Positions 32,820 through 46,872 are shown, numbered from the stretch's first letter. The stretch: DNA of 64,000 bases from Escherichia coli (GCF_003991155.1 NZ_CP031293.1), one strand, 5' to 3'. Notes: generated from the letters alone by a model not told the origin. Numbers and translations are program-made.

Positions 32820-33062
32820 TCATGCTCCGGTAGTGAACAGGTCTAACGCTTCCTTCGATTTACGCACCGCTTCGATAGTGCGGGTCGTGATATCTGAATT
32901 AGCGCCACCTGACTGGAAGTGAATTTTGAATAGCTCAAGCTTCAGTTCGTCAGTGCCAATGAACTGAAATGCTTCCTCTGCGGCTGCGTTCTGGTTCATG
33001 ACCAGTTTGTAAATCTCTAACTGGAATTTCTGTTCTTCAGTCATGGGAATAATCTCTGCCAT
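32820..33062 (-). CDS. Hypothetical late-region protein
   Basis: 80 aa ORF between lysis genes and terminase; a possible 59-aa GTG ORF follows at about 32641-32818. Confidence 0.35.
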   Translation of the reverse strand: MAEIIPMTEEQKFQLEIYKLVMNQNAAAEEAFQFIGTDELKLELFKIHFQSGGANSDITTRTIEAVRKSKEALDLFTTGA

Positions 33063-38533: not shown

Positions 38534-39057
38534 GCCGCCCTCCTGACGCCCTGCCCGATCGCCATCAATGCCGCTTTGGATACGGTAGTAAACATCCGTC
38601 GAGGATTGATGAACGGTCGCCAAATCAGCAGCATGGAACCTTTGCTGTTTCCCTTCTTCTCCAGCCCTGTCGATGGTTCGATAAAATTAATCCGTCCATC
38701 AGTGATGATGCGAACTTCGTCAATACTCTCCAGAGCCTTGCTGAACCATCCGACAGACATATCCTCTGGCACAAGCATCACTACCGTCTGTCGCTGTTGT
38801 ATGCACTGCTCAGCGGCTTTTTCCACCCACGGCCTGATATTGCTGTACGGTGGGTTATTCCAGATTGCACCGTGGCTTACCCACTCAGAATTGAGCGCGT
38901 CGTCGGCCTCAGTTAGCCAGTGAGCACACAGAGCATTTTTGTCGCTCGCTGCCGAATCCAGCCAGAATCCAAACTCAATATCCAGTGCATCAAAAAGCCA
39001 AAGCGGCGTTTGCCAGCAGTCCTTGTCGTGTGCTGGCGTATTTGATTTGATAGTCAT
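38530..39057 (-). CDS. Orphan DNA N6-adenine methyltransferase (phage Dam-like)
   Basis: 175 aa from MTIKSN; NPPY motif (AIWNNPPYS); no adjacent restriction endonuclease. Confidence 0.7.
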
Positions 39058-39497
39058 GCAGCCCGATCTCCCCATCTCGCTTTCCACTCCAGAGCCAGTC
39101 TCGCTTCGTCTGACCACTTAACGCCACGCTCTGTACCGAATGCCTGTATAAGCTCTAATAGCTCCGCAAATTCGCCTACACGCATCCTGCTGGTTGACTG
39201 GCCTATTACCACAAAGCCATTCCCGGCAAGGTTAGGAACAACATCCTGCTGCTTTAATGCTGCGGTAAACACACACTTCCAGCTTTCTGCATCCAGCCAA
39301 CGCCCATGCCATTCAACCTGACGAGAGACGTCACCTAAGCAGGCCCATAGCTTCCTGTTTTGGTCTAAGCTGCGGTTGCGTTCCTGAATGGTTACTACGA
39401 TTGGTTTGGTTGGGTCTGGAAGAATTTTCTGGATAGCTTGAATGGCGTTCTGCTGATGGATGGGGCTTCTTAGTTCAAACGTTAGTTTCCTCACCAT
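39054..39497 (-). CDS. ninB: NinB/Orf-like recombination mediator
   Basis: 147 aa, MVRKLTFELRSPIHQQNAIQ. Confidence 0.85.
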   Translation of the reverse strand: MVRKLTFELRSPIHQQNAIQAIQKILPDPTKPIVVTIQERNRSLDQNRKLWACLGDVSRQVEWHGRWLDAESWKCVFTAALKQQDVVPNLAGNGFVVIGQSTSRMRVGEFAELLELIQAFGTERGVKWSDEARLALEWKARWGDRAA

Positions 39498-39641
39498 TTA
39501 CGCTCCTGTAATCGTCAAGTGCAGCTGCAATAGTCCCTATCGGGTCATGGTCTTGCCCGATAATCTCATTTACGTTTTCATCTTCTTCCACACCGAAAAA
39601 GAATCGCAGGGCTAACATGATTTCTTCGTATGCGCTCATAC

Positions 39642-39956
39642 TCACTCCTTCACTTTGACTCCAGCAGTGCGGATGGCCTCTACATCGCTTTCGTATTGTG
39701 ATTCTGCACCTGAGTCATAGCCAATGTGATAATCACCGGGAAGTGGGCCTTTCTTTGGCTTTTGCAGCTCAATTTCAATAGCTGCTCTCGATGCCTGCCA
39801 CGTTTGCCAGTGGCCTTGAACATCGTCCATCACGTATTGACCACCAATATTACCGCTGCCAATTTCATGGTGATTTTCAGGGTAACGGATAAGGTCTGAA
39901 GATTCGCCCCCACGTCGCAACCAACTTTCTTCAAACTGCTTTCTTGATTCGTCCAT
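39642..39956 (-). CDS. Hypothetical protein
   Basis: 104 aa ORF between helicase gene and ninB; no recognised motif. Confidence 0.4.
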   Translation of the reverse strand: MDESRKQFEESWLRRGGESSDLIRYPENHHEIGSGNIGGQYVMDDVQGHWQTWQASRAAIEIELQKPKKGPLPGDYHIGYDSGAESQYESDVEAIRTAGVKVKE

Positions 39957-39973
39957 TGATACTTACCCTCAGT

Positions 39974-40180
39974 TCAACTCACAAAACGCCACGCCATTTT
40001 TGCTACGACAACAGGCATAACACCGATAATCACCCAGACAAATGCAGCGCCAAACAACGTATACCATGGGTCTTTACCGTCATTCACAAGACGAATGTAG
40101 CTATGCAGAACAATAAAAAACGTCAGAAGAATCCATCCAACGCCAACGCATTTGAATGCGACGAGCATAAACTCAGCCAC
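39974..40180 (-). CDS. Small two-helix membrane protein, unknown function
   Basis: 68 aa, two hydrophobic segments. Confidence 0.35.
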   Translation of the reverse strand: MAEFMLVAFKCVGVGWILLTFFIVLHSYIRLVNDGKDPWYTLFGAAFVWVIIGVMPVVVAKMAWRFVS

Positions 40181-40252
40181 GATTTACCCTCCCCCAAATA
40201 AAAAGGCCTGCGATTACCAGCAGGCCTGTTATTAGCTCAGTGATGTAGATGG

Positions 40253-41629
40253 TCATACGTCCGCCCCTTGTGCATATCGTCTGCCACGCGCAGCAGGCGC
40301 ATTTGATGCTGTGCAAATCTGTCTGGCTTCATCCTGGTCACATGCAACAAAGTGTCCGTTACAGAACCGCTGGTAAACCGTACCAAGTGAGCCAAAACGG
40401 TTTTTCGTCACGATGATTTCAGCAAATGGCGCGGCGCTACTGTTCTCGTCATATACCGCTTCCCGATAGAGCATGATGATTGAGTCTGCGTCCTGCTCAA
40501 TGCTTCCTGAATCACGCAAATCTGCGTTTGTCGGGCGTTTGTTTGGTCGCTTCTCAACATCGCGCGAAAGCTGACTCAGGGAGATAACAGGCGTTTTCAG
40601 GTCTTTCGCCATCGCCTTCAGGCTTCCGGAGATGTGAGCAATTGCGAGGTCGTTGCGGTCTGCTTTCGGCTTCTCAATCAGGCCAAGATAATCCGCCATG
40701 ATTAGAGACAGGTTTGGATTTTCCTGTTTATGCCGTTCTGCGATTGAGCGTATTTCTTCGACCGATAACCGCGAGGCATCGACTACCCATACATCCAAAT
40801 CTGCAAGCTGACTCATGCCGTTAGCAACACGCGCCCAGCCTTCGTCATCCATCGATGCAGGATTTCGCAGTACGCTAACCGACATCCTCCCGGCGTTGGC
40901 AATGCTTCGCTCTGCAATCTGCAATGCGCTCATTTCCATCGAGAAAATCAACACTCCGCGCCGGACGTCAGAACCGGGAATAACGCGGCTTGCAACGCCT
41001 TCAGCAATCTTCAGCGCCAGCTCGGTTTTCCCCATACCAGGACGAGCGGCGATAATCACCAGGTCTTCCGCGTTCATCCCTCCGGTGATGGCGTCAAGTT
41101 CTTCGATTCCGGTCTTCAGGGTATCTGACTCTTCTCCGTTCCTCAGACGCCTGTCAAGCGTGTCAGTGTAGTCAGTGATGATTTCCCCTAACCGTACAGG
41201 TTTAACCTCGTCACGGGGCTTTCTGATGGCTGAAAGACGCTTTACAAGCTCGTCCATCGCCTGACTCGATGTATCGATGGTTCCGCTCTGAATTGGTTCA
41301 CGCATTTCATCCATGATTTCCAGCACCAGACGGCGGTGATAGTTATCCGCGACCATTCCGGCATATCCTTTCAGGTTTGCGGCACTCGGGCAGTTTTTGC
41401 TGGTCATCAGGATTGACGTGAAATGCTCCTCTCCGCACGCCTCGGCAACCATCAGCGCGTCGATTAGGTTTCTGTTTCTCGCCTGCTTGCGGATAACCTC
41501 GAAGGCTTTCCGGTAGAGCGGAATTGAAAACGCTTCCGGCTCCAGTGTTGCCAGAACGTCGCTGGCGGTTGGAGTTAATCCACCAATCAGCAGACCGCCG
41601 ATAACGCTCGCTTCGATATCCTGTCTCAT
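40253..41629 (-). CDS. Replicative DnaB-like helicase (P22 gene 12-like)
   Basis: 458 aa, Walker A GMGKT and DnaB C-terminal motifs. Confidence 0.9.
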
Positions 41630-42573
41630 GCAATCCCCCTGTCTGCAAACTTCCCTTCCCGTACTCCCGTTAACGAATCTTCCCTCAGCAGGTAATCAAA
41701 ATCTGCCGTCCATCCCGTGTCGTTGTCTCCGAAGTAAAACGGCTTGGCCTGATGCACAAACGCCCTGACATACGCTCTGAAACCGTCCACGTTTGGCGTT
41801 TTCAGTTGCGGGATGATTTTCTTCAGGCGGCGTTTGCGTTTCTCGTTGACCGCAACAGCGTGTGGCAGTCTGTCACCGACTTCGGTGTTGTAAGCGTTCA
41901 GGAAGGATTCGTAGTCGATTCGTTCTGCCTTGCGACGTTCAGGTTTAACCTGCCCATCGCCTCCCCCATTGGGGGGTAGGGGGGTATTATTTATATTCTT
42001 GTTAATACCTTCTTGTTCATGATGTGCGGTTGTTTGTGCGGCTTCATGTGCGCTTTCATGTGCGGCATGTACGCTGAATGCCGCGCCATTACTGGCTTCA
42101 TCATGTGCGGCATCATGTGCGGTTGTTTGTGCGGCTTCATGTGCGGGTGAACTGTCCATTTTTTGAGCATATTCATGGTAATTTGTGATGGTTATCACAC
42201 GACCTTTTTGCTTCTCCCCATCAATGGAGATCATCCCCTCTTTCACAAAAACCTGAAGCATCCGCTCAACCTGATCACGGCTTGCCGGCTTGCCATGCCT
42301 GTCGCATAACTGAAGACCTAAATCAGCTGCTGTCACAACCAGTTGACCGGGTTGCAGATGCCATTCATGACCTTTGAAATTCGCTTTGTATGGCTTTCTG
42401 GCGGCATTCAGGAGAAGGTTTTCCCACAGGGTGCGAAGATAAACATCTTTCGCCCATGACTGTTTCAGAATGCTCCGGTACAACGGAATGTAACCAGTTT
42501 TCTGGTTCTCCATCCTGTTGCTCCTGCGCTCGTGTGCGGCGCTGAAATCGTAGATTTTTGCTGTATTGCTCAT
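41626..42573 (-). CDS. Replication initiator (P22 gene 18 / O-like) containing ori iterons
   Basis: 315 aa; repeat-encoded His/Ala-rich tract; overlaps helicase start. Confidence 0.8.
42018..42150. repeat. Replication-origin iterons inside the initiator gene
   Basis: Repeated (T)CATGTGCGG units; ~30-bp block ATGTGCGGTTGTTTGTGCGGCTTCATGTGCG present twice. Confidence 0.6.
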
Positions 42574-42575
42574 AA

Positions 42576-42848
42576 CTACCTGCCTTGACGAAAGACCTTA
42601 AGAACATCGTTAAACTGACTTACGGATATGTCTTCTTTGAGAAGCTTTTCCAGAAATGCGTTTGGAATGAACGTATATCCCTCCTCTTTTGGTAGAGACG
42701 AGAGCAACGCCCTCGCCTCAGCCTTCAGAAGCTCAGTTCTGGCAACTTTCACAAAAGAGATTTGAGTTCTTTCATCAATGGAACGAAGGAAGCGCAAACG
42801 CTTAGCTTCTTTGTGTGTATCAGGTGGATTAAAGCCTTTGTTTCGCAT
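42576..42848 (-). CDS. Hypothetical protein between cII-like gene and initiator
   Basis: 90 aa from internal ATG with GAGGT RBS; long ORF-track N-extension overlaps cII in another frame. Confidence 0.4.
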   Translation of the reverse strand: MRNKGFNPPDTHKEAKRLRFLRSIDERTQISFVKVARTELLKAEARALLSSLPKEEGYTFIPNAFLEKLLKEDISVSQFNDVLKVFRQGR

Positions 42849-42870
42849 ATAATTACCTCGCTGGATGTTG

Positions 42871-43164
42871 TTAAAATTCCATTTGTATTTGATCAGAACG
42901 CTCGGTTGCCGCCGGGCGTTTTTTATTGGTGAGAATCGAAGCAACTTGTCGTGCCAATCGAGCCATATCGTCGTCAACGACGCCCCATTCAAGAACAGCA
43001 AGCAGCATTGAGAACTTTGGAATCCAGTCCCTCTTCCACCTGCTGATCTGCGACTTATCAACTCCCACAGCTTCCGCTGTCTTCTCAGTTCCAAGCATTG
43101 CGATTTTGTTAAGCAACGCACTCTCGATTCGTAGAGCCTCGTTGCGTTTGTTTGCACGAACCAT
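42871..43164 (-). CDS. cII: CII-like lysogeny establishment regulator
   Basis: 97 aa from MVRANKRNEALRIESALLNKIAMLG, lambda CII-like. Confidence 0.9.
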   Translation of the reverse strand: MVRANKRNEALRIESALLNKIAMLGTEKTAEAVGVDKSQISRWKRDWIPKFSMLLAVLEWGVVDDDMARLARQVASILTNKKRPAATERSDQIQMEF

Positions 43165-43221
43165 ATGTAAGTATTTCCTTAACAAATAAGAAGTTATGCG
43201 CATCAACTTATGCGCGTTGTA

Positions 43222-43266
43222 TTCCCGCATTTCGGCGGGAATGAGGACCATGACTGTTAAAGAGCA
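43222..43266 (-). promoter_or_regulatory. nutR (boxA + boxB hairpin)
   Basis: Minus strand TGCTCTTTAACA then hairpin TCCCGCCGAAATGCGGGA; same elements downstream of PL. Confidence 0.55.
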
Positions 43267-43272
43267 ATTTGC

Positions 43273-43458
43273 TTATGCCGCTTTGCGGTAAGCGCTTTCT
43301 TGATACTTCAGGGCGCCAGCTGTAACGACTTCCAGTCGATAGGCGTCTTTCTCTGGGATGACTTCCTTCCACTGAGAGACTGCTGCGTCGCTAATGCCTA
43401 ACGCTTTAGCTACAGCACGCTGGGTTCCGAAGTGGTCGATAACATCTTTCTTGTACAT
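43273..43458 (-). CDS. cro: Cro (P22-type)
   Basis: 61 aa, MYKKDVIDHFGTQRAVAKALGISDAAVSQW. Confidence 0.9.
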   Translation of the reverse strand: MYKKDVIDHFGTQRAVAKALGISDAAVSQWKEVIPEKDAYRLEVVTAGALKYQESAYRKAA

Positions 43459-43472
43459 AGACTCGCTCCGAA

Positions 43473-43538
43473 ATTAAAGAACACTTAAATTATCCACTAA
43501 AGGAATCTTAAGTCAAGTTTATTTAAGATGTCTTAACT
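43473..43538. promoter_or_regulatory. OR operator cluster with PR/PRM (three 18-bp P22-type operators)
   Basis: ATTAAAGAACACTTAAAT, ACTAAAGGAATCTTAAGT, ATTTAAGATGTCTTAACT between divergent cro and c2. Confidence 0.7.
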
Positions 43539-44189
43539 ATGAAAACTCAATTGATGGGAGAGCGCATTCGCGCTCGGAGAAAAGAACTCAAGATCAGGCA
43601 GGCCGCACTTGGAAAGATGGTCGGCGTGTCTAATGTTGCCATATCTCAGTGGGAACGCTCTGAGACAGAGCCAAATGGAGAGAATCTTCTCGCCCTGGCT
43701 AATGCGTTGAAGTGTTCCCCTGACTATCTGATGAAAGGAGAGGAAAGTCTTTCAAACATTGCCTATCACAGTAGGCATGATCCAAGAGGGTCATACCCTC
43801 TGATTAGCTGGGTGAGCGCAGGATGCTGGATGGAAGCTGTAGAACCATATCATAAGCGTGCAATAGATAACTGGTACGATACAACCGTAGACTGTTCAGA
43901 AGATTCGTTTTGGTTGGATGTGAAGGGAGACTCAATGACGGCTCCGGCCGGTCTCAGTATCCCTGAAGGAATGATAATACTCGTCGATCCTGAAGTAGAG
44001 CCGCGTAACGGGAAACTGGTAGTTGCAAAGCTCGAAGGAGAAAACGAGGCAACTTTCAAGAAGTTAGTTATTGATGCAGGCAGGAAGTTTCTAAAACCAC
44101 TTAACCCACAATATCCGATGATCGAGATCAACGGAAACTGCAAAATCATCGGCGTAGTTGTCGATGCAAAACTAGCAAACCTTCCATAA
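43539..44189 (+). CDS. c2: C2 repressor (P22-type, LexA-like autocleaving)
   Basis: 216 aa, HTH N-domain and S24 peptidase C-domain. Confidence 0.95.
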   Translation: MKTQLMGERIRARRKELKIRQAALGKMVGVSNVAISQWERSETEPNGENLLALANALKCSPDYLMKGEESLSNIAYHSRHDPRGSYPLISWVSAGCWMEAVEPYHKRAIDNWYDTTVDCSEDSFWLDVKGDSMTAPAGLSIPEGMIILVDPEVEPRNGKLVVAKLEGENEATFKKLVIDAGRKFLKPLNPQYPMIEINGNCKIIGVVVDAKLANLP

Positions 44190-44214
44190 GGGGGCATTCG
44201 CCCCTTTTTTTTAT
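44190..44214 (+). terminator. Intrinsic terminator after c2
   Basis: GGGGCATTCGCCCC followed by TTTTTTTT. Confidence 0.55.
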
Positions 44215-44254
44215 TTCCTTTAAAAATCAAAGCCAAACTTAAGTTACGAAAGAA

Positions 44255-44310
44255 AATTTAAGTTTTCTTCAAAAATACTCTTGACCATTAATTAAAGAGA
44301 TCTTAAATTT
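44255..44310 (+). promoter_or_regulatory. OL operators and PL promoter
   Basis: Operator-like palindrome ATTAAAGAGATCTTAAAT and TTTAAG-containing site; TTGACC -35 at 44281. Confidence 0.5.
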
Positions 44311-44355
44311 AAGCCATCAGCAGGACGCTGGAAGCCAAACGGAACAGATTGGCAG

Positions 44356-44396
44356 GCTCTTTAACATTGATGGGATTGTCCCGCCGAAATGCGGGA
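44356..44396 (+). promoter_or_regulatory. nutL (boxA + boxB hairpin)
   Basis: GCTCTTTAACA then TCCCGCCGAAATGCGGGA, inverted copy of nutR. Confidence 0.55.
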
Positions 44397-44795
44397 ACCA
44401 AAGAGTAGTTGGCTTTGGGATTGGATGAATGAGCAGGCTGATGCTCGACCAATGTATAAACAGCGCTCATGGCAAGCAGTAACCAATCTGCGCCTCAAGA
44501 CAGCGTCACTGGTAGTGCGGGCGCTCTAACCAGTAAGCCGGAGTTCAGCACCGGCCATCCAATCGCCAAAGTCAATTCCATAGGCGTTATGCAGCCGCCA
44601 CCTATTCAAGAAAGCTGCACAAGAGGTAGGAGGATTTATGTGAATACTTACATTCAATTGAGAGATTAATTAAATAGAACTGATCGAGCAGAGTCCATAA
44701 AGGCTCATAAATGCTCTTCCATCCCCGTCTAATTGGCGGGGAAGGAAACCACTTTGTAATAAAAAAATTCCAAAGTTGTTTCATCGGAGGTCAAC

Positions 44796-45095
44796 ATGAC
44801 AGTAGTCATTACATATCTAGCTGACGATAACGCCAGAAATCGCCGCAGAGCACGCAGGCAGGCTCAACGTGAACAGGCAATGCAAGAACAGCGACTGGCG
44901 CGAAAGATTGCGCTAAAGCTCTCTGGTTGCGTCAGAGCAGACAAAGCAGCATCACTCGGAAGCCTTCGCTGCAAGAAGGCAGAAGAAGTCGAGAGTAAAC
45001 AGAACCGTATTTACTACCGCAAGCCACGCAGTGAAATGGGTGTGACTTGTGTTGGTCGCCAGAAAATGAAATTAGGCAGCAAACCACTTATTTGA
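44796..45095 (+). CDS. N-like antitermination protein (P22 gene 24-like)
   Basis: 99 aa, arginine-rich motif NARNRRRARRQAQREQ. Confidence 0.7.
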   Translation: MTVVITYLADDNARNRRRARRQAQREQAMQEQRLARKIALKLSGCVRADKAASLGSLRCKKAEEVESKQNRIYYRKPRSEMGVTCVGRQKMKLGSKPLI

Positions 45096-45106
45096 GAGGA
45101 ATTAAT

Positions 45107-45730
45107 ATGTCATCAATCCGCTTAACTACGAGAATGAAAGAGAAAATCGCTCGTAACGCTTTAATTAAGTCTGGGGTTTTCACTGAACTTGAAGAAGTAA
45201 CAAAGTTAAAGAACCAGCTTGCACTTGACGCCAGAGTTATTGCGTTTGGCGGTAAAAAGAAAACTGAGGAAGTGGATCAGTTATCATCCAGGTTAGTAGC
45301 TATAAGTGAAGAACTTGAAAAGATGGGATGTTCATTTTACTCATACGATGTTCGTTCTACTTCAATTTATCTGACTGTATCTGGCAGAAGGGTTGGATGG
45401 CATTCATATGGGAAAGACGGCAACGGCGAAGATATATTGCTCCCTACTCCAACCAAAGATAAATGCATGTTTGATGCAGAACACGAAATAACAAAAAGGT
45501 TTGATGAAATCTGCGCATTGCAACAAAAACTTGAAGCCAAGAAAAAGGATATCGAATCAAATGTATGGGCTGCTTTGAACTCAGTCACAACAGTTAAGCG
45601 ACTTATTGAAGTTTGGCCTGAAAGCAAAGAATTGCTACCAAAAGAAGCAGACAAAGCAAGTACAGCACTTCCTGCTTTACGGGTAGAAGATTTGAATAAG
45701 ATGATTGGACTTCCTTCCGAGTCCGCATAG
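45107..45730 (+). CDS. Hypothetical early-left protein
   Basis: 207 aa from ATG with GAGAGGA RBS; soluble, no recognised motif. Confidence 0.45.
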   Translation: MSSIRLTTRMKEKIARNALIKSGVFTELEEVTKLKNQLALDARVIAFGGKKKTEEVDQLSSRLVAISEELEKMGCSFYSYDVRSTSIYLTVSGRRVGWHSYGKDGNGEDILLPTPTKDKCMFDAEHEITKRFDEICALQQKLEAKKKDIESNVWAALNSVTTVKRLIEVWPESKELLPKEADKASTALPALRVEDLNKMIGLPSESA

Positions 45731-45903
45731 TCGGCCTTTATTTTTGGCACTAACAACAGAATAAACACTGCACTGTGTATTCATTCCAACGAGTGAATAC
45801 ACGGAGCAATGTCGCTCTTAACTAAACAGGAGCCGACTTGTTCTGATTATTGGAAATCTTCTTTGCCCTCCAGTGTGAGGGCGATTTTTTTGATGGAGGA
45901 TAT

Positions 45904-46872
45904 ATGAGTGAAGTAACAGATTTAGTTGTTATTGAAAAAGCAAATGCAATGACTGTATTTCAGTCTGCCGACCAGATTGAAGAAATCCTTCAAAGGGTTG
46001 AACGTGAAGTTATGTCCTTTGTGCCTGATATCACAACGGCAAAGGGCAGAAAGGAGATCGCTTCTCTGGCGTATAAAGTTGCGCAGACGAAAACATATCT
46101 CGATGGTCTTGGCAAAGACCTTGTTGCTGAACTGAAGGAAATTCCAAAGCTAATTGATGCCAACCGCAAGACAGTGCGCGATCGCCTTGATGAGCTGAAA
46201 GCCAAGGCACGCCAGCCTCTTACTGATTATGAGGAAGAACAGGCGCGGATTAAAGCCGAAGAAGAAGCTAAGGCAGCAGCTGAAGCTCTCGCAAAGCAAA
46301 TTGAGTCTGACCATGAAATAGCTATTTTGATGGATCGCGAATTTGACCGCCAAAGAGAAGAGGCAAGACTCAAAGCGGAGCAGGAAAAGCGAGAGCATGA
46401 AGAACGCTTAAAAAGAGAAGCTGAAGAGAAAGCCAGAGCAGAAGCCGAAGCAAAGGCAAAAGCCGAAATTGAAGCAGCAGCAAGGCGAGAAGCAGAAGCT
46501 AAGGCCGCAGCGGAACGTGCAGAGCGTGAACGCATTGAAGCCGAGCAACGAGCACAGCGCGAAGCAAAAGAGGCAGCAGAACGAGCTGAAAGAGAAAAGC
46601 AGGCGGCAATTGAAGCAGAACGCCGAAAAGCACAGGAGGAGGCTGAACGAATCCGGCGCGAGGCTGAAGCAAAAGAGCAAGCCAGAATAGCAGAAGAAAA
46701 AAGAATCAAGGACGAAGAAGAGCGTAGAGCAAAGGATAAAGCTCACCGGAAAGAAGTAAATAACAAAATACTTGCTGACCTTATCAAGGTTGGCGCATCA
46801 GAAGATGTTGCTAAAAATATCATAACAGCCATCGTAAAAGGCGAAGTATTCGCAACAAAAATAACCTACTAA
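45904..46872 (+). CDS. Coiled-coil protein with TolA domain-II-like Ala/Glu/Lys/Arg repeats
   Basis: 322 aa from ATG with GGAGGA RBS; ~180-aa low-complexity tract. Confidence 0.5.
   Translation: MSEVTDLVVIEKANAMTVFQSADQIEEILQRVEREVMSFVPDITTAKGRKEIASLAYKVAQTKTYLDGLGKDLVAELKEIPKLIDANRKTVRDRLDELKAKARQPLTDYEEEQARIKAEEEAKAAAEALAKQIESDHEIAILMDREFDRQREEARLKAEQEKREHEERLKREAEEKARAEAEAKAKAEIEAAARREAEAKAAAERAERERIEAEQRAQREAKEAAERAEREKQAAIEAERRKAQEEAERIRREAEAKEQARIAEEKRIKDEEERRAKDKAHRKEVNNKILADLIKVGASEDVAKNIITAIVKGEVFATKITY

Follow-up and report, generated by a model that had tools for sequence, protein, structure and literature searches.

A direct-repeat array and A+T-rich tract within the O-like initiator gene of a P22-like Escherichia coli prophage: a very probable replication origin

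Introduction

The replication origin of lambdoid phages consists of iterons and an A+T-rich tract that lie midway along the O gene (PMC7466680). Lambda has four iterons of about 20 bp in O, P22 has four repeats of about 20 bp in gene 18 and gene 18 of phage L contains six 11-bp repeats (PMC8022706). Those of phage L, imprecise direct repeats of the sequence TGTCCAACGGA, were proposed as origin iterons from sequence alone, and its gene 18 product (gp18) is 25% identical to P22 gp18 (PMC8022706). In lambda the iterons are bound by dimers of the O protein (PMC7466680). Here we describe a comparable element in a 64,000-nucleotide stretch of Escherichia coli DNA (GCF_003991155.1, NZ_CP031293.1), which at its full length is referred to below as the window. 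An array of short direct repeats (42018-42146) lies within a gene for an O-like replication initiator (41626-42573, minus strand) and is followed by an A+T-rich tract; array and tract together very probably serve as the origin of replication of a lambdoid (P22-like) prophage, set within that part of the prophage's own initiator gene which codes for the linker. The literature searched, where most subscription-journal papers lie outside coverage, yielded no account of this iteron.

Results

The repeat array and the adjoining A+T-rich tract

The array consists of eight 12-bp direct repeats with the coding-strand consensus CCGCACATGAAG, arranged as two clusters of four separated by a 33-bp spacer. 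The promoter-proximal cluster 1 (42099-42146, minus strand) reads CCGCACATGAAG, CCGCACAAACAA, CCGCACATGATG and CCGCACATGATG on the coding strand, which corresponds on the plus strand to CTTCATGTGCGG at 42135-42146, TTGTTTGTGCGG at 42123-42134 and CATCATGTGCGG at both 42111-42122 and 42099-42110. Cluster 2 (42018-42065, minus strand), which adjoins the A+T-rich tract, reads CCGCACATGAAA, GCGCACATGAAG, CCGCACAAACAA and CCGCACATCATG, the plus-strand units being TTTCATGTGCGG (42054-42065), CTTCATGTGCGC (42042-42053), TTGTTTGTGCGG (42030-42041) and CATGATGTGCGG (42018-42029). The sequence CATGTGCGG is found four times exactly in the array and twice more with one mismatch, and TTTGTGCGG is present in two units. 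The exact core TGTGCGG (CCGCACA on the coding strand) occurs seven times in 124 bp, always on a single strand, with a spacing of exactly 12 bp inside each cluster and an offset of 45 bp between the clusters. Elsewhere in the window there are eight scattered copies of this heptamer, about 0.02 copies would be expected in 124 bp (Poisson P ~3e-16), and no second CCGCACA cluster was found in the 64 kb. Tandem Repeats Finder places arrays of period 12 at 42035-42066 and 42099-42146, and the segments 42023-42053 and 42116-42146 are a duplicated block with 30 of 31 positions identical. The array is read in frame by the minus-strand open reading frame (ORF), giving a His/Ala-rich tract at about residues 143-186, between the N- and C-terminal domains of the protein.

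The spacer between the clusters (42066-42098, minus strand) contains a near-palindrome, AATGCCGCGCCATT (42077-42090), which is symmetric at 12 of its 14 positions and encodes SNGAA; the spacer motif AGY AAY GGC GCG GCN is largely kept even where the iteron cores of related subfamilies differ (see below). An isolated ninth CCGCACA lies in the same orientation as the array at 42533-42539, 35 nt into the initiator gene. It is present in the near-identical phage CUS-3 but absent from all other lineages examined beyond the window's allele family, and because of this absence it is probably there by chance and was rejected as a functional site.

Downstream in the direction of transcription the last repeat is directly abutted by a 33-bp A+T-rich tract (41985-42017, minus strand; 18% G+C), which is A-rich on the coding strand (AACAAGAAGGTATTAACAAGAATATAAATAATA) and is the predicted DNA-unwinding element. 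With a nearest-neighbour free energy (dG) of -42.1 kcal/mol, where the mean over the window is -55.0 +/- 4.0, the 40-mer at 41984-42023 is the least stable of the gene and falls in the lowest 0.15% of the window. In position and strand bias the tract agrees with the A-rich tracts of the lambda and P22 origins. The last unit abuts the tract in all nine of the lineages in which the junction is readable. A survey of 80 IMG/VR loci gave 69 distinct alleles, their N-domains being 98-100% identical to that of the window, and in these alleles no stretch of the gene was better conserved than the A-rich tract, in which 1 of 45 sites is polymorphic. A second stretch of low G+C content (30%) lies promoter-proximal of the repeats at 42150-42200; as it encodes the conserved end of the N-domain its composition may be incidental. 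Beyond the A+T-rich tract is a G/C-rich palindromic element (C6/G5; about 41960-41985, minus strand; coding strand ACCCCCCTACCCCCCAATGGGGGAGG), with which the C-domain module begins and whose translation is TPLPPNGGG. A homologous sequence, ACCCCCTTACCCCCTAAAGGGGG, closes the rep_origin feature annotated in the P22 RefSeq record (NC_002371), and the segment is shared at 83-88% identity with ST104, HK446, mEp213, Nil2 and others, in which the iterons differ. As single-stranded DNA its predicted fold is marginal, being weakly better than shuffled sequences (z = -1.8).

The original prediction for this DNA had noted at least five copies of a repeat in the middle of an O-like gene. The repeats are real but that count was too low, the array being one of eight units in a 4+4 layout. 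The other features that it named were recovered: the duplicated block of about 30 bp, the periodicity expected of iterons in a tandem-repeat search (period 12), the His/Ala-rich translation inside an O-like gene (from the ORF together with the Pfam and PHROG matches given below) and the A+T-rich region just downstream, which lies within the least stable 40-mer of the gene.

The initiator protein

The gene at 41626-42573 (minus strand) is an ORF of 315 codons whose product has PF04492 (Phage_rep_O) as its sole family match in a Pfam scan (residues 20-132, E 3.4e-15, 56.8 bits compared with a cutoff of 28.7) and matches PHROG 345, 'replication initiation O-like', with E 1.4e-99. The same scan gave no Rep_3-family initiator, and 41900-42250 contains no match to the DnaA box TTATNCACA even when one mismatch is allowed; lacking both of these, a plasmid-type iteron origin (Rep_3/RepA-pi, 17-22-bp repeats, DnaA boxes) was rejected. 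The protein is made up of an N-terminal DNA-binding domain, the repeat-encoded linker tract and a C-terminal domain resembling that of P22 gp18. The first of these is a predicted winged-helix origin-binding domain (about residues 21-136, encoded at 42166-42513, minus strand): in an AlphaFold2 model the predicted local distance difference test (pLDDT) score is 73-93 over residues 31-130, and a beta hairpin at 115-129 comes after helices at 82-88 and 99-111, which is a winged-helix layout, with the predicted recognition helix starting at Ser98-Arg99-Asp100. Residues 138-225, which cover the tract and the linker after it, have pLDDT below 50, falling to about 25-35 through the repeat-encoded tract, so that this part is predicted to be disordered. 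A Foldseek comparison of the model with the PDB gave weak matches (E >= 0.017), mostly winged-helix proteins (MarR, CodY, CRP, ArsR) and otherwise small ribosomal proteins, which support the class of fold only; a PDB sequence search with the initiator found nothing at E <= 1.

A Shine-Dalgarno-like AGGAG followed by ATG (AGGAGCAAC[A/C]GGATGGA, about 42510-42530, minus strand) precedes the internal residue Met21 (MENQK...). This start signal is kept in seven of eight readable lineages, including those in which the 20-residue leader differs, and some records start the gene there; Met21 may be a second or alternative translation start.

Repeat cores covary with the N-domain

The N-domains of Salmonella phage S.Inf 5-2 and Enterobacter phage ENT1 are 46-47% identical to that of the window and are accompanied by different cores at 12-bp spacing, SCGATRA and G[T/A]CGAR. 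Reading of these sequences places the cores at the offsets of the window family (25/37/49 and 94/106/118), in two clusters and with an A-rich tract directly after them, and the peptides encoded by the tract are unrelated (PDEPCDKPSD and VEGSDEPPVE). Three N-domain subfamilies thus correspond to three types of core within one 12-bp/45-bp geometry. The 45-bp start-to-start distance from unit 4 to unit 5 was found in every lineage in which both units are recognizable, seven by pattern search and two by reading the sequences.

A finer correspondence is seen within the window's own subfamily. In two lineages (L091 and L092) the peptide is still Ala-His but GCG replaces GCA in every recognizable unit, so that the core is CCGCGCA as against CCGCACA, and the N-domains of the same two lineages have Ser-Arg-His at the start of the predicted recognition helix as against Ser-Arg-Asp in the window. 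The pairing of SRH with CGCGCA and of SRD with CGCACA was predicted before look-up in further lineages and held in four out of four. That a synonymous site is uniform across the units of one genome while non-core positions differ argues for selection on the DNA.

Constraint on DNA rather than on the peptide

Codons and amino acids were compared between the window and its Klebsiella and Yersinia relatives in pairs, codon identity being taken at conserved residues. In the repeat tract 71-85% of such codons are identical, the figure for the N-domain being 55-61% (the three pairs have Fisher P = 0.002, 0.014 and 0.07), whereas amino-acid identity in these pairs is 47-60% in the repeat tract and 72-84% in the N-domain. 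Among the 69 alleles the core positions 1-7 have 0.32 variants per site and positions 8-12 have 1.78 (P = 3e-13). In distant relatives Ala-His/Gln is kept at every fourth residue while the two residues between vary freely, and His to Gln changes (CAT to CAA) are common, with the core GCACA preserved.

Relatives, module exchange and alleles

The initiator gene is 98-99% identical to the O genes of phages CUS-3, Gally, JEP4 and HF4s and about 98-99% identical to those of many Shiga toxin (Stx) 2a phages, the window's replicon also being present in at least 48 records of Stx2a-converting phages. No origin feature is annotated beneath the match in any of the matching phage records listed. The N-domain (75-86% identical) and the repeat tract are also common to Klebsiella phages 2 LV-2017 and Mulock and Yersinia phage vB_YenM_29.18, in all three of which a lambda-type C-domain (SSENSGESSD...) comes after the repeats; the gene that follows carries the annotation replication protein P in Mulock and the Yersinia phage and elsewhere in this group simply as replication protein. 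Conversely, ST104 gp18 has the same C-domain and helicase as the window together with a different N-domain, and CCGCACA units are absent from it. The C-domain of P22 gp18 is 58% identical to the window's. In all, the CCGCACA core was found with three types of C-domain: the lambda type (with a P-annotated partner), the P22 type (with a DnaB-type helicase as partner) and a third type. As the mosaic junctions map to the A-rich tract and the palindrome, the repeats are inherited with the DNA-binding domain and not with the partner-binding domain.

In one natural IMG/VR allele that has the same N-domain with the third kind of C-domain (L088; IMGVR_UViG_2896595138_000005, 1860-1930) the eight units are replaced by a single three-unit array, CCGCACATGAAG, CCGCACAAACAA, CCGCACATCATG. 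In sequence they are units 1 and 2 joined to unit 8, with the same A-rich tract after them, and the arrangement was apparently produced by a deletion between the two duplicated blocks of 31 bp. With only three units kept, the full 4+4 array may not be needed for initiation, which hints at a minimal origin. Tract length was constant in 75 of the 76 intact, i.e. non-frameshifted, alleles recovered, and for this reason phase variation through a change in repeat number was rejected. One homologue (P0044) appeared to have its repeats read in another frame, as PRIT repeats, but its DNA shows an apparent 1-nt deletion in an A-run and another frameshift, so that it was set aside as a damaged or mis-assembled allele and not an alternative coding of the tract. 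The search for N-domain homologues returned mostly truncated 'partial' proteins and so was good for linker peptides and poor for a broad survey; many of these database homologues (among P0001-P0073) are about 146-211 residues long and end in or just past the repeat tract. Several loci (among L009, L056, L091, L093 and L094) have frameshifts or decayed units in the tract. Assemblies or prophage decay seem to break at the repeats.

Prophage setting and gene order

The region around 42 kb of the window is the early-right region of a P22-like prophage, whose nearest relatives in the phage collection are IME10, HZ41, HK544, CUS-3 and Sf101. The early-right operon is transcribed on the minus strand and comprises cro (43273-43458), cII (42871-43251), an ORF of 91 codons (42576-42851), the initiator gene and the gene for a DnaB-type replicative helicase of 458 residues (40253-41629; Pfam DnaB_C E 9e-78, DnaB N-terminal domain E 4.5e-13; PHROG 19), with a cI-like repressor gene on the plus strand at 43539-44189. 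The helicase gene is directly downstream of the initiator gene, overlapping its stop codon, and its product is the presumed partner of the initiator C-domain. The 91-codon ORF lies between cII and the initiator gene and its stop abuts the initiator start; it matches PHROG 2519, of unknown function (E 7.8e-57), has no Pfam match and falls in an interval that the CUS-3 record leaves unannotated.

The sole sigma-70-like match within 41500-43600 is a pR-like promoter upstream of cro (43489-43516, minus strand; TTGACT, 16-nt spacer, GATAAT; 10 of 12 positions matching). Transcription from it would cross cro, cII, the 91-codon ORF, the O-like gene and the repeat array, and by analogy with lambda might have a part in activating the origin. 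On the plus strand, antisense to the 3' end of cII, there is a strong hairpin resembling an intrinsic terminator (42895-42922), with a 12-bp GC-rich stem followed by TTTTTTATT. Its sequence (CAGAACGCTCGGTTGCCGCCGGGCGTTTTTTATT) is presumably that of the 3' end of the lambda oop RNA, and the hairpin is probably an oop antisense RNA terminator. An Rfam scan of 39000-46000 gave nothing credible, the sole match being ToxT_thermometer at 26 bits compared with a gathering score of 81 bits.

Discussion

How the origin may work

By analogy with lambda O and ori-lambda (PMC7466680, PMC8022706), the N-terminal winged-helix domain of the O-like protein would recognize the 7-bp core CCGCACA, presented every 12 bp in two clusters of four, and the resulting nucleoprotein complex would distort the DNA and melt the adjoining 33-bp A+T-rich tract. 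The C-terminal domain, which resembles that of P22 gp18, would then recruit the DnaB-type helicase that the phage itself encodes in the following gene, and transcription of the rightward operon from the pR-like promoter, in crossing the site, would probably help its activation. Two adjacent units make up 24 bp, about one iteron period of lambda, so that the eight half-sites might bind four dimers, or else each unit might bind one monomer. The His/Ala-rich peptide is best regarded as a by-product, a tolerant and probably disordered linker with the sequence that the DNA sites impose on it. A more specific proposal, which we put forward tentatively and think rather less likely than not to hold, is that the 4+4 array of 12-bp direct repeats with its conserved 45-bp inter-cluster distance represents a distinct origin architecture among O-family initiators, in which winged-helix monomers would sit head-to-tail about once per helical turn, in two arrays flanking a conserved central spacer, instead of as dimers on palindromic iterons; one residue of the recognition helix (Asp100 or His) might read core position 5 (A or G).

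Alternatives to an origin

Several observations weigh against interpreting the array as an origin. No unit has internal dyad symmetry, all the units have one orientation and the reverse complement of the core is absent from the array; as lambda O binds as a dimer, the mode of binding must differ here. No part of the gene is more polymorphic than the repeat tract, where 38.6% of sites vary among the 69 alleles compared with 8% in the N-domain. The covariation of SRD/SRH with A/G may represent two clades only, that is a single evolutionary event, and gene conversion between repeats could have helped to keep the core alike from unit to unit. Binding or replication experiments on this type of iteron were not found in the literature searched, in which subscription journals are thinly covered.

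Polymorphism of this kind would fit an explanation in which the repeats are merely a low-complexity His/Ala-rich protein linker that arose by slippage or duplication, with its function in the peptide (e.g. metal binding or flexibility) and the origin elsewhere. The tract is in frame and predicted to be disordered, the duplicated 31-bp blocks indicate that duplication or recombination acts here and His-rich peptides can have functions of their own. Such an explanation is nevertheless improbable, given that unrelated peptides (AHEA, PDEPCDKPSD and VEGSDEPPVE) are encoded across the subfamilies with an identical DNA geometry, that the core is fixed at its four-fold-degenerate positions even as the residues between cores change, and that His often changes to Gln with GCACA retained. 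One clade has the synonymous change of GCA to GCG fixed in all recognizable units, and next to the tract lies the least stable DNA of the gene, exactly as in lambda and P22. Those same features of the core, kept as it is against synonymous change, also stand against the idea that the repeats and adjacent sequence are mainly a recombination hotspot, providing microhomology for exchange of N- and C-domain modules and playing no part in replication. Mosaic junctions do map beside the array, but they lie in the A-rich tract and the palindrome, outside the repeats, and repeats that are specific to each N-domain type cannot give homology between types; we give this possibility very little credence indeed.

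The repeats might, on the other hand, be true initiator-binding sites that serve mainly in control (by titration or handcuffing, by autoregulating the transcription or translation of O, or by excluding related phages) and not as the site of unwinding. Plasmid iterons act both in initiation and in copy control. Cloned ori-lambda iterons inhibit rep-lambda phages (PMC3349717), and the two extra iterons of Stx-phage origins are bound only weakly in vitro, although transformation by the derived plasmid requires them (PMC7466680). The single three-unit array described above likewise suggests that some units could be dispensable for initiation. A role confined to control is still improbable when the last unit directly abuts the A+T-rich tract in nine of nine readable lineages, when that tract is so strongly conserved and when the window has no other cluster of CCGCACA; it also overlaps with the origin interpretation and is compatible with it. 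The array and A+T-rich tract as the replication origin of the prophage thus remains the explanation that we strongly favour.

Significance

The pairing of iteron and N-domain presumably sets which phages share or compete for replication functions and so defines a replicon type. This type is widespread, being found in P22-like coliphages and prophages (CUS-3, Gally, JEP4, HF4s and Kapi1) as well as in the 48 or more Stx2a-converting phage records. Knowledge of the origin and its core would aid the annotation of genomes, the design of miniplasmids or of decoys that block replication, and the reading of mosaic exchange among lambdoid phages. The concerted synonymous change that tracks a residue of the recognition helix offers a clean and testable example of co-evolution of initiator and origin inside a coding sequence and, if it is true that Asp100 or His reads core position 5, a natural minimal specificity switch for engineering orthogonal phage replicons. 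The textbook picture is unchanged and a specialist would not be surprised.

Comparison with known origins

The original prediction was of a lambda/P22 arrangement, with the origin inside the initiator gene. As far as the layout is concerned this holds, but the units are direct repeats without dyad symmetry and neither the N-domain nor the iterons are those of P22. As in lambda, the origin lies in the linker-coding middle of an O-family gene and the repeats at which the initiator would act are read in frame; four annotated iterons are followed in lambda by a promoter-distal A-rich 40-mer of 22% G+C, compared with 18% in the window's tract, and in both systems the N-domain and iterons form one specificity module while the C-domain pairs with the next gene. 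The iterons of lambda, however, are 18 bp long with visible inverted symmetry (ATCCCTC...GAGGGA), lie 20-24 bp apart and number four in one array, whereas the window has eight 12-bp direct repeats in two clusters 45 bp apart. The window's N-domain is barely alignable to that of lambda O (32% identity over 69 residues, E 0.004), and the partner is a DnaB-type helicase in place of the P loader. The Stx phages 933W and P27, which are the same kind of prophages, likewise have more than four repeats within O, but these are six lambda-type iterons of 18-19 bp bound by dimers of a lambda-like O, again with a P loader as partner (PMC7466680).

In P22 the rep_origin is annotated inside gene 18 (32840-32984 of NC_002371) with the same order of repeats, A-rich tract and C/G palindrome, the helicase gene that follows (P22 gene 12) has the same length of 458 codons, and the gene order cro, c1/cII, small ORF, initiator, helicase is also shared. 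The N-domain, in contrast, has no similarity to P22 gp18 at the level of BLASTP; P22 repeats are of about 20-24 bp with inverted elements of the TCGGTAAA...TTTACCGA type, and repeats of the TCGGTAAA type are absent here. Gene 18 of the P22-like phage ST104 has no CCGCACA units. With N-domain and iteron sequence both different, the same replicon specificity as P22 was rejected. The prediction of a distinct iteron sequence is borne out in this respect, the sequence differing from the iterons of both lambda and P22 and covarying with the N-domain.

Phage L provides the likeness of short direct repeats, about one helical turn long, inside the O-like gene of a P22-like phage, with differences (on comparison with the published description) in the sequence and number of the repeats and in the type of initiator. 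A similar layout is seen in a Firmicutes phage, Lactobacillus phage phiAT3, whose ORF30 (L007) has an N-domain 31% identical to the window's and four copies of CAATCAA at 11-bp spacing (gene positions 363-396), followed by a Lys/Glu-rich, A-rich tract encoding KKEEKEKKEKKE. In view of the short direct repeats of phage L and phiAT3 the kind of array is already known, as is a lambdoid origin inside an O-family gene; what distinguishes the window is the core sequence of its repeats and their bipartite direct-repeat layout.

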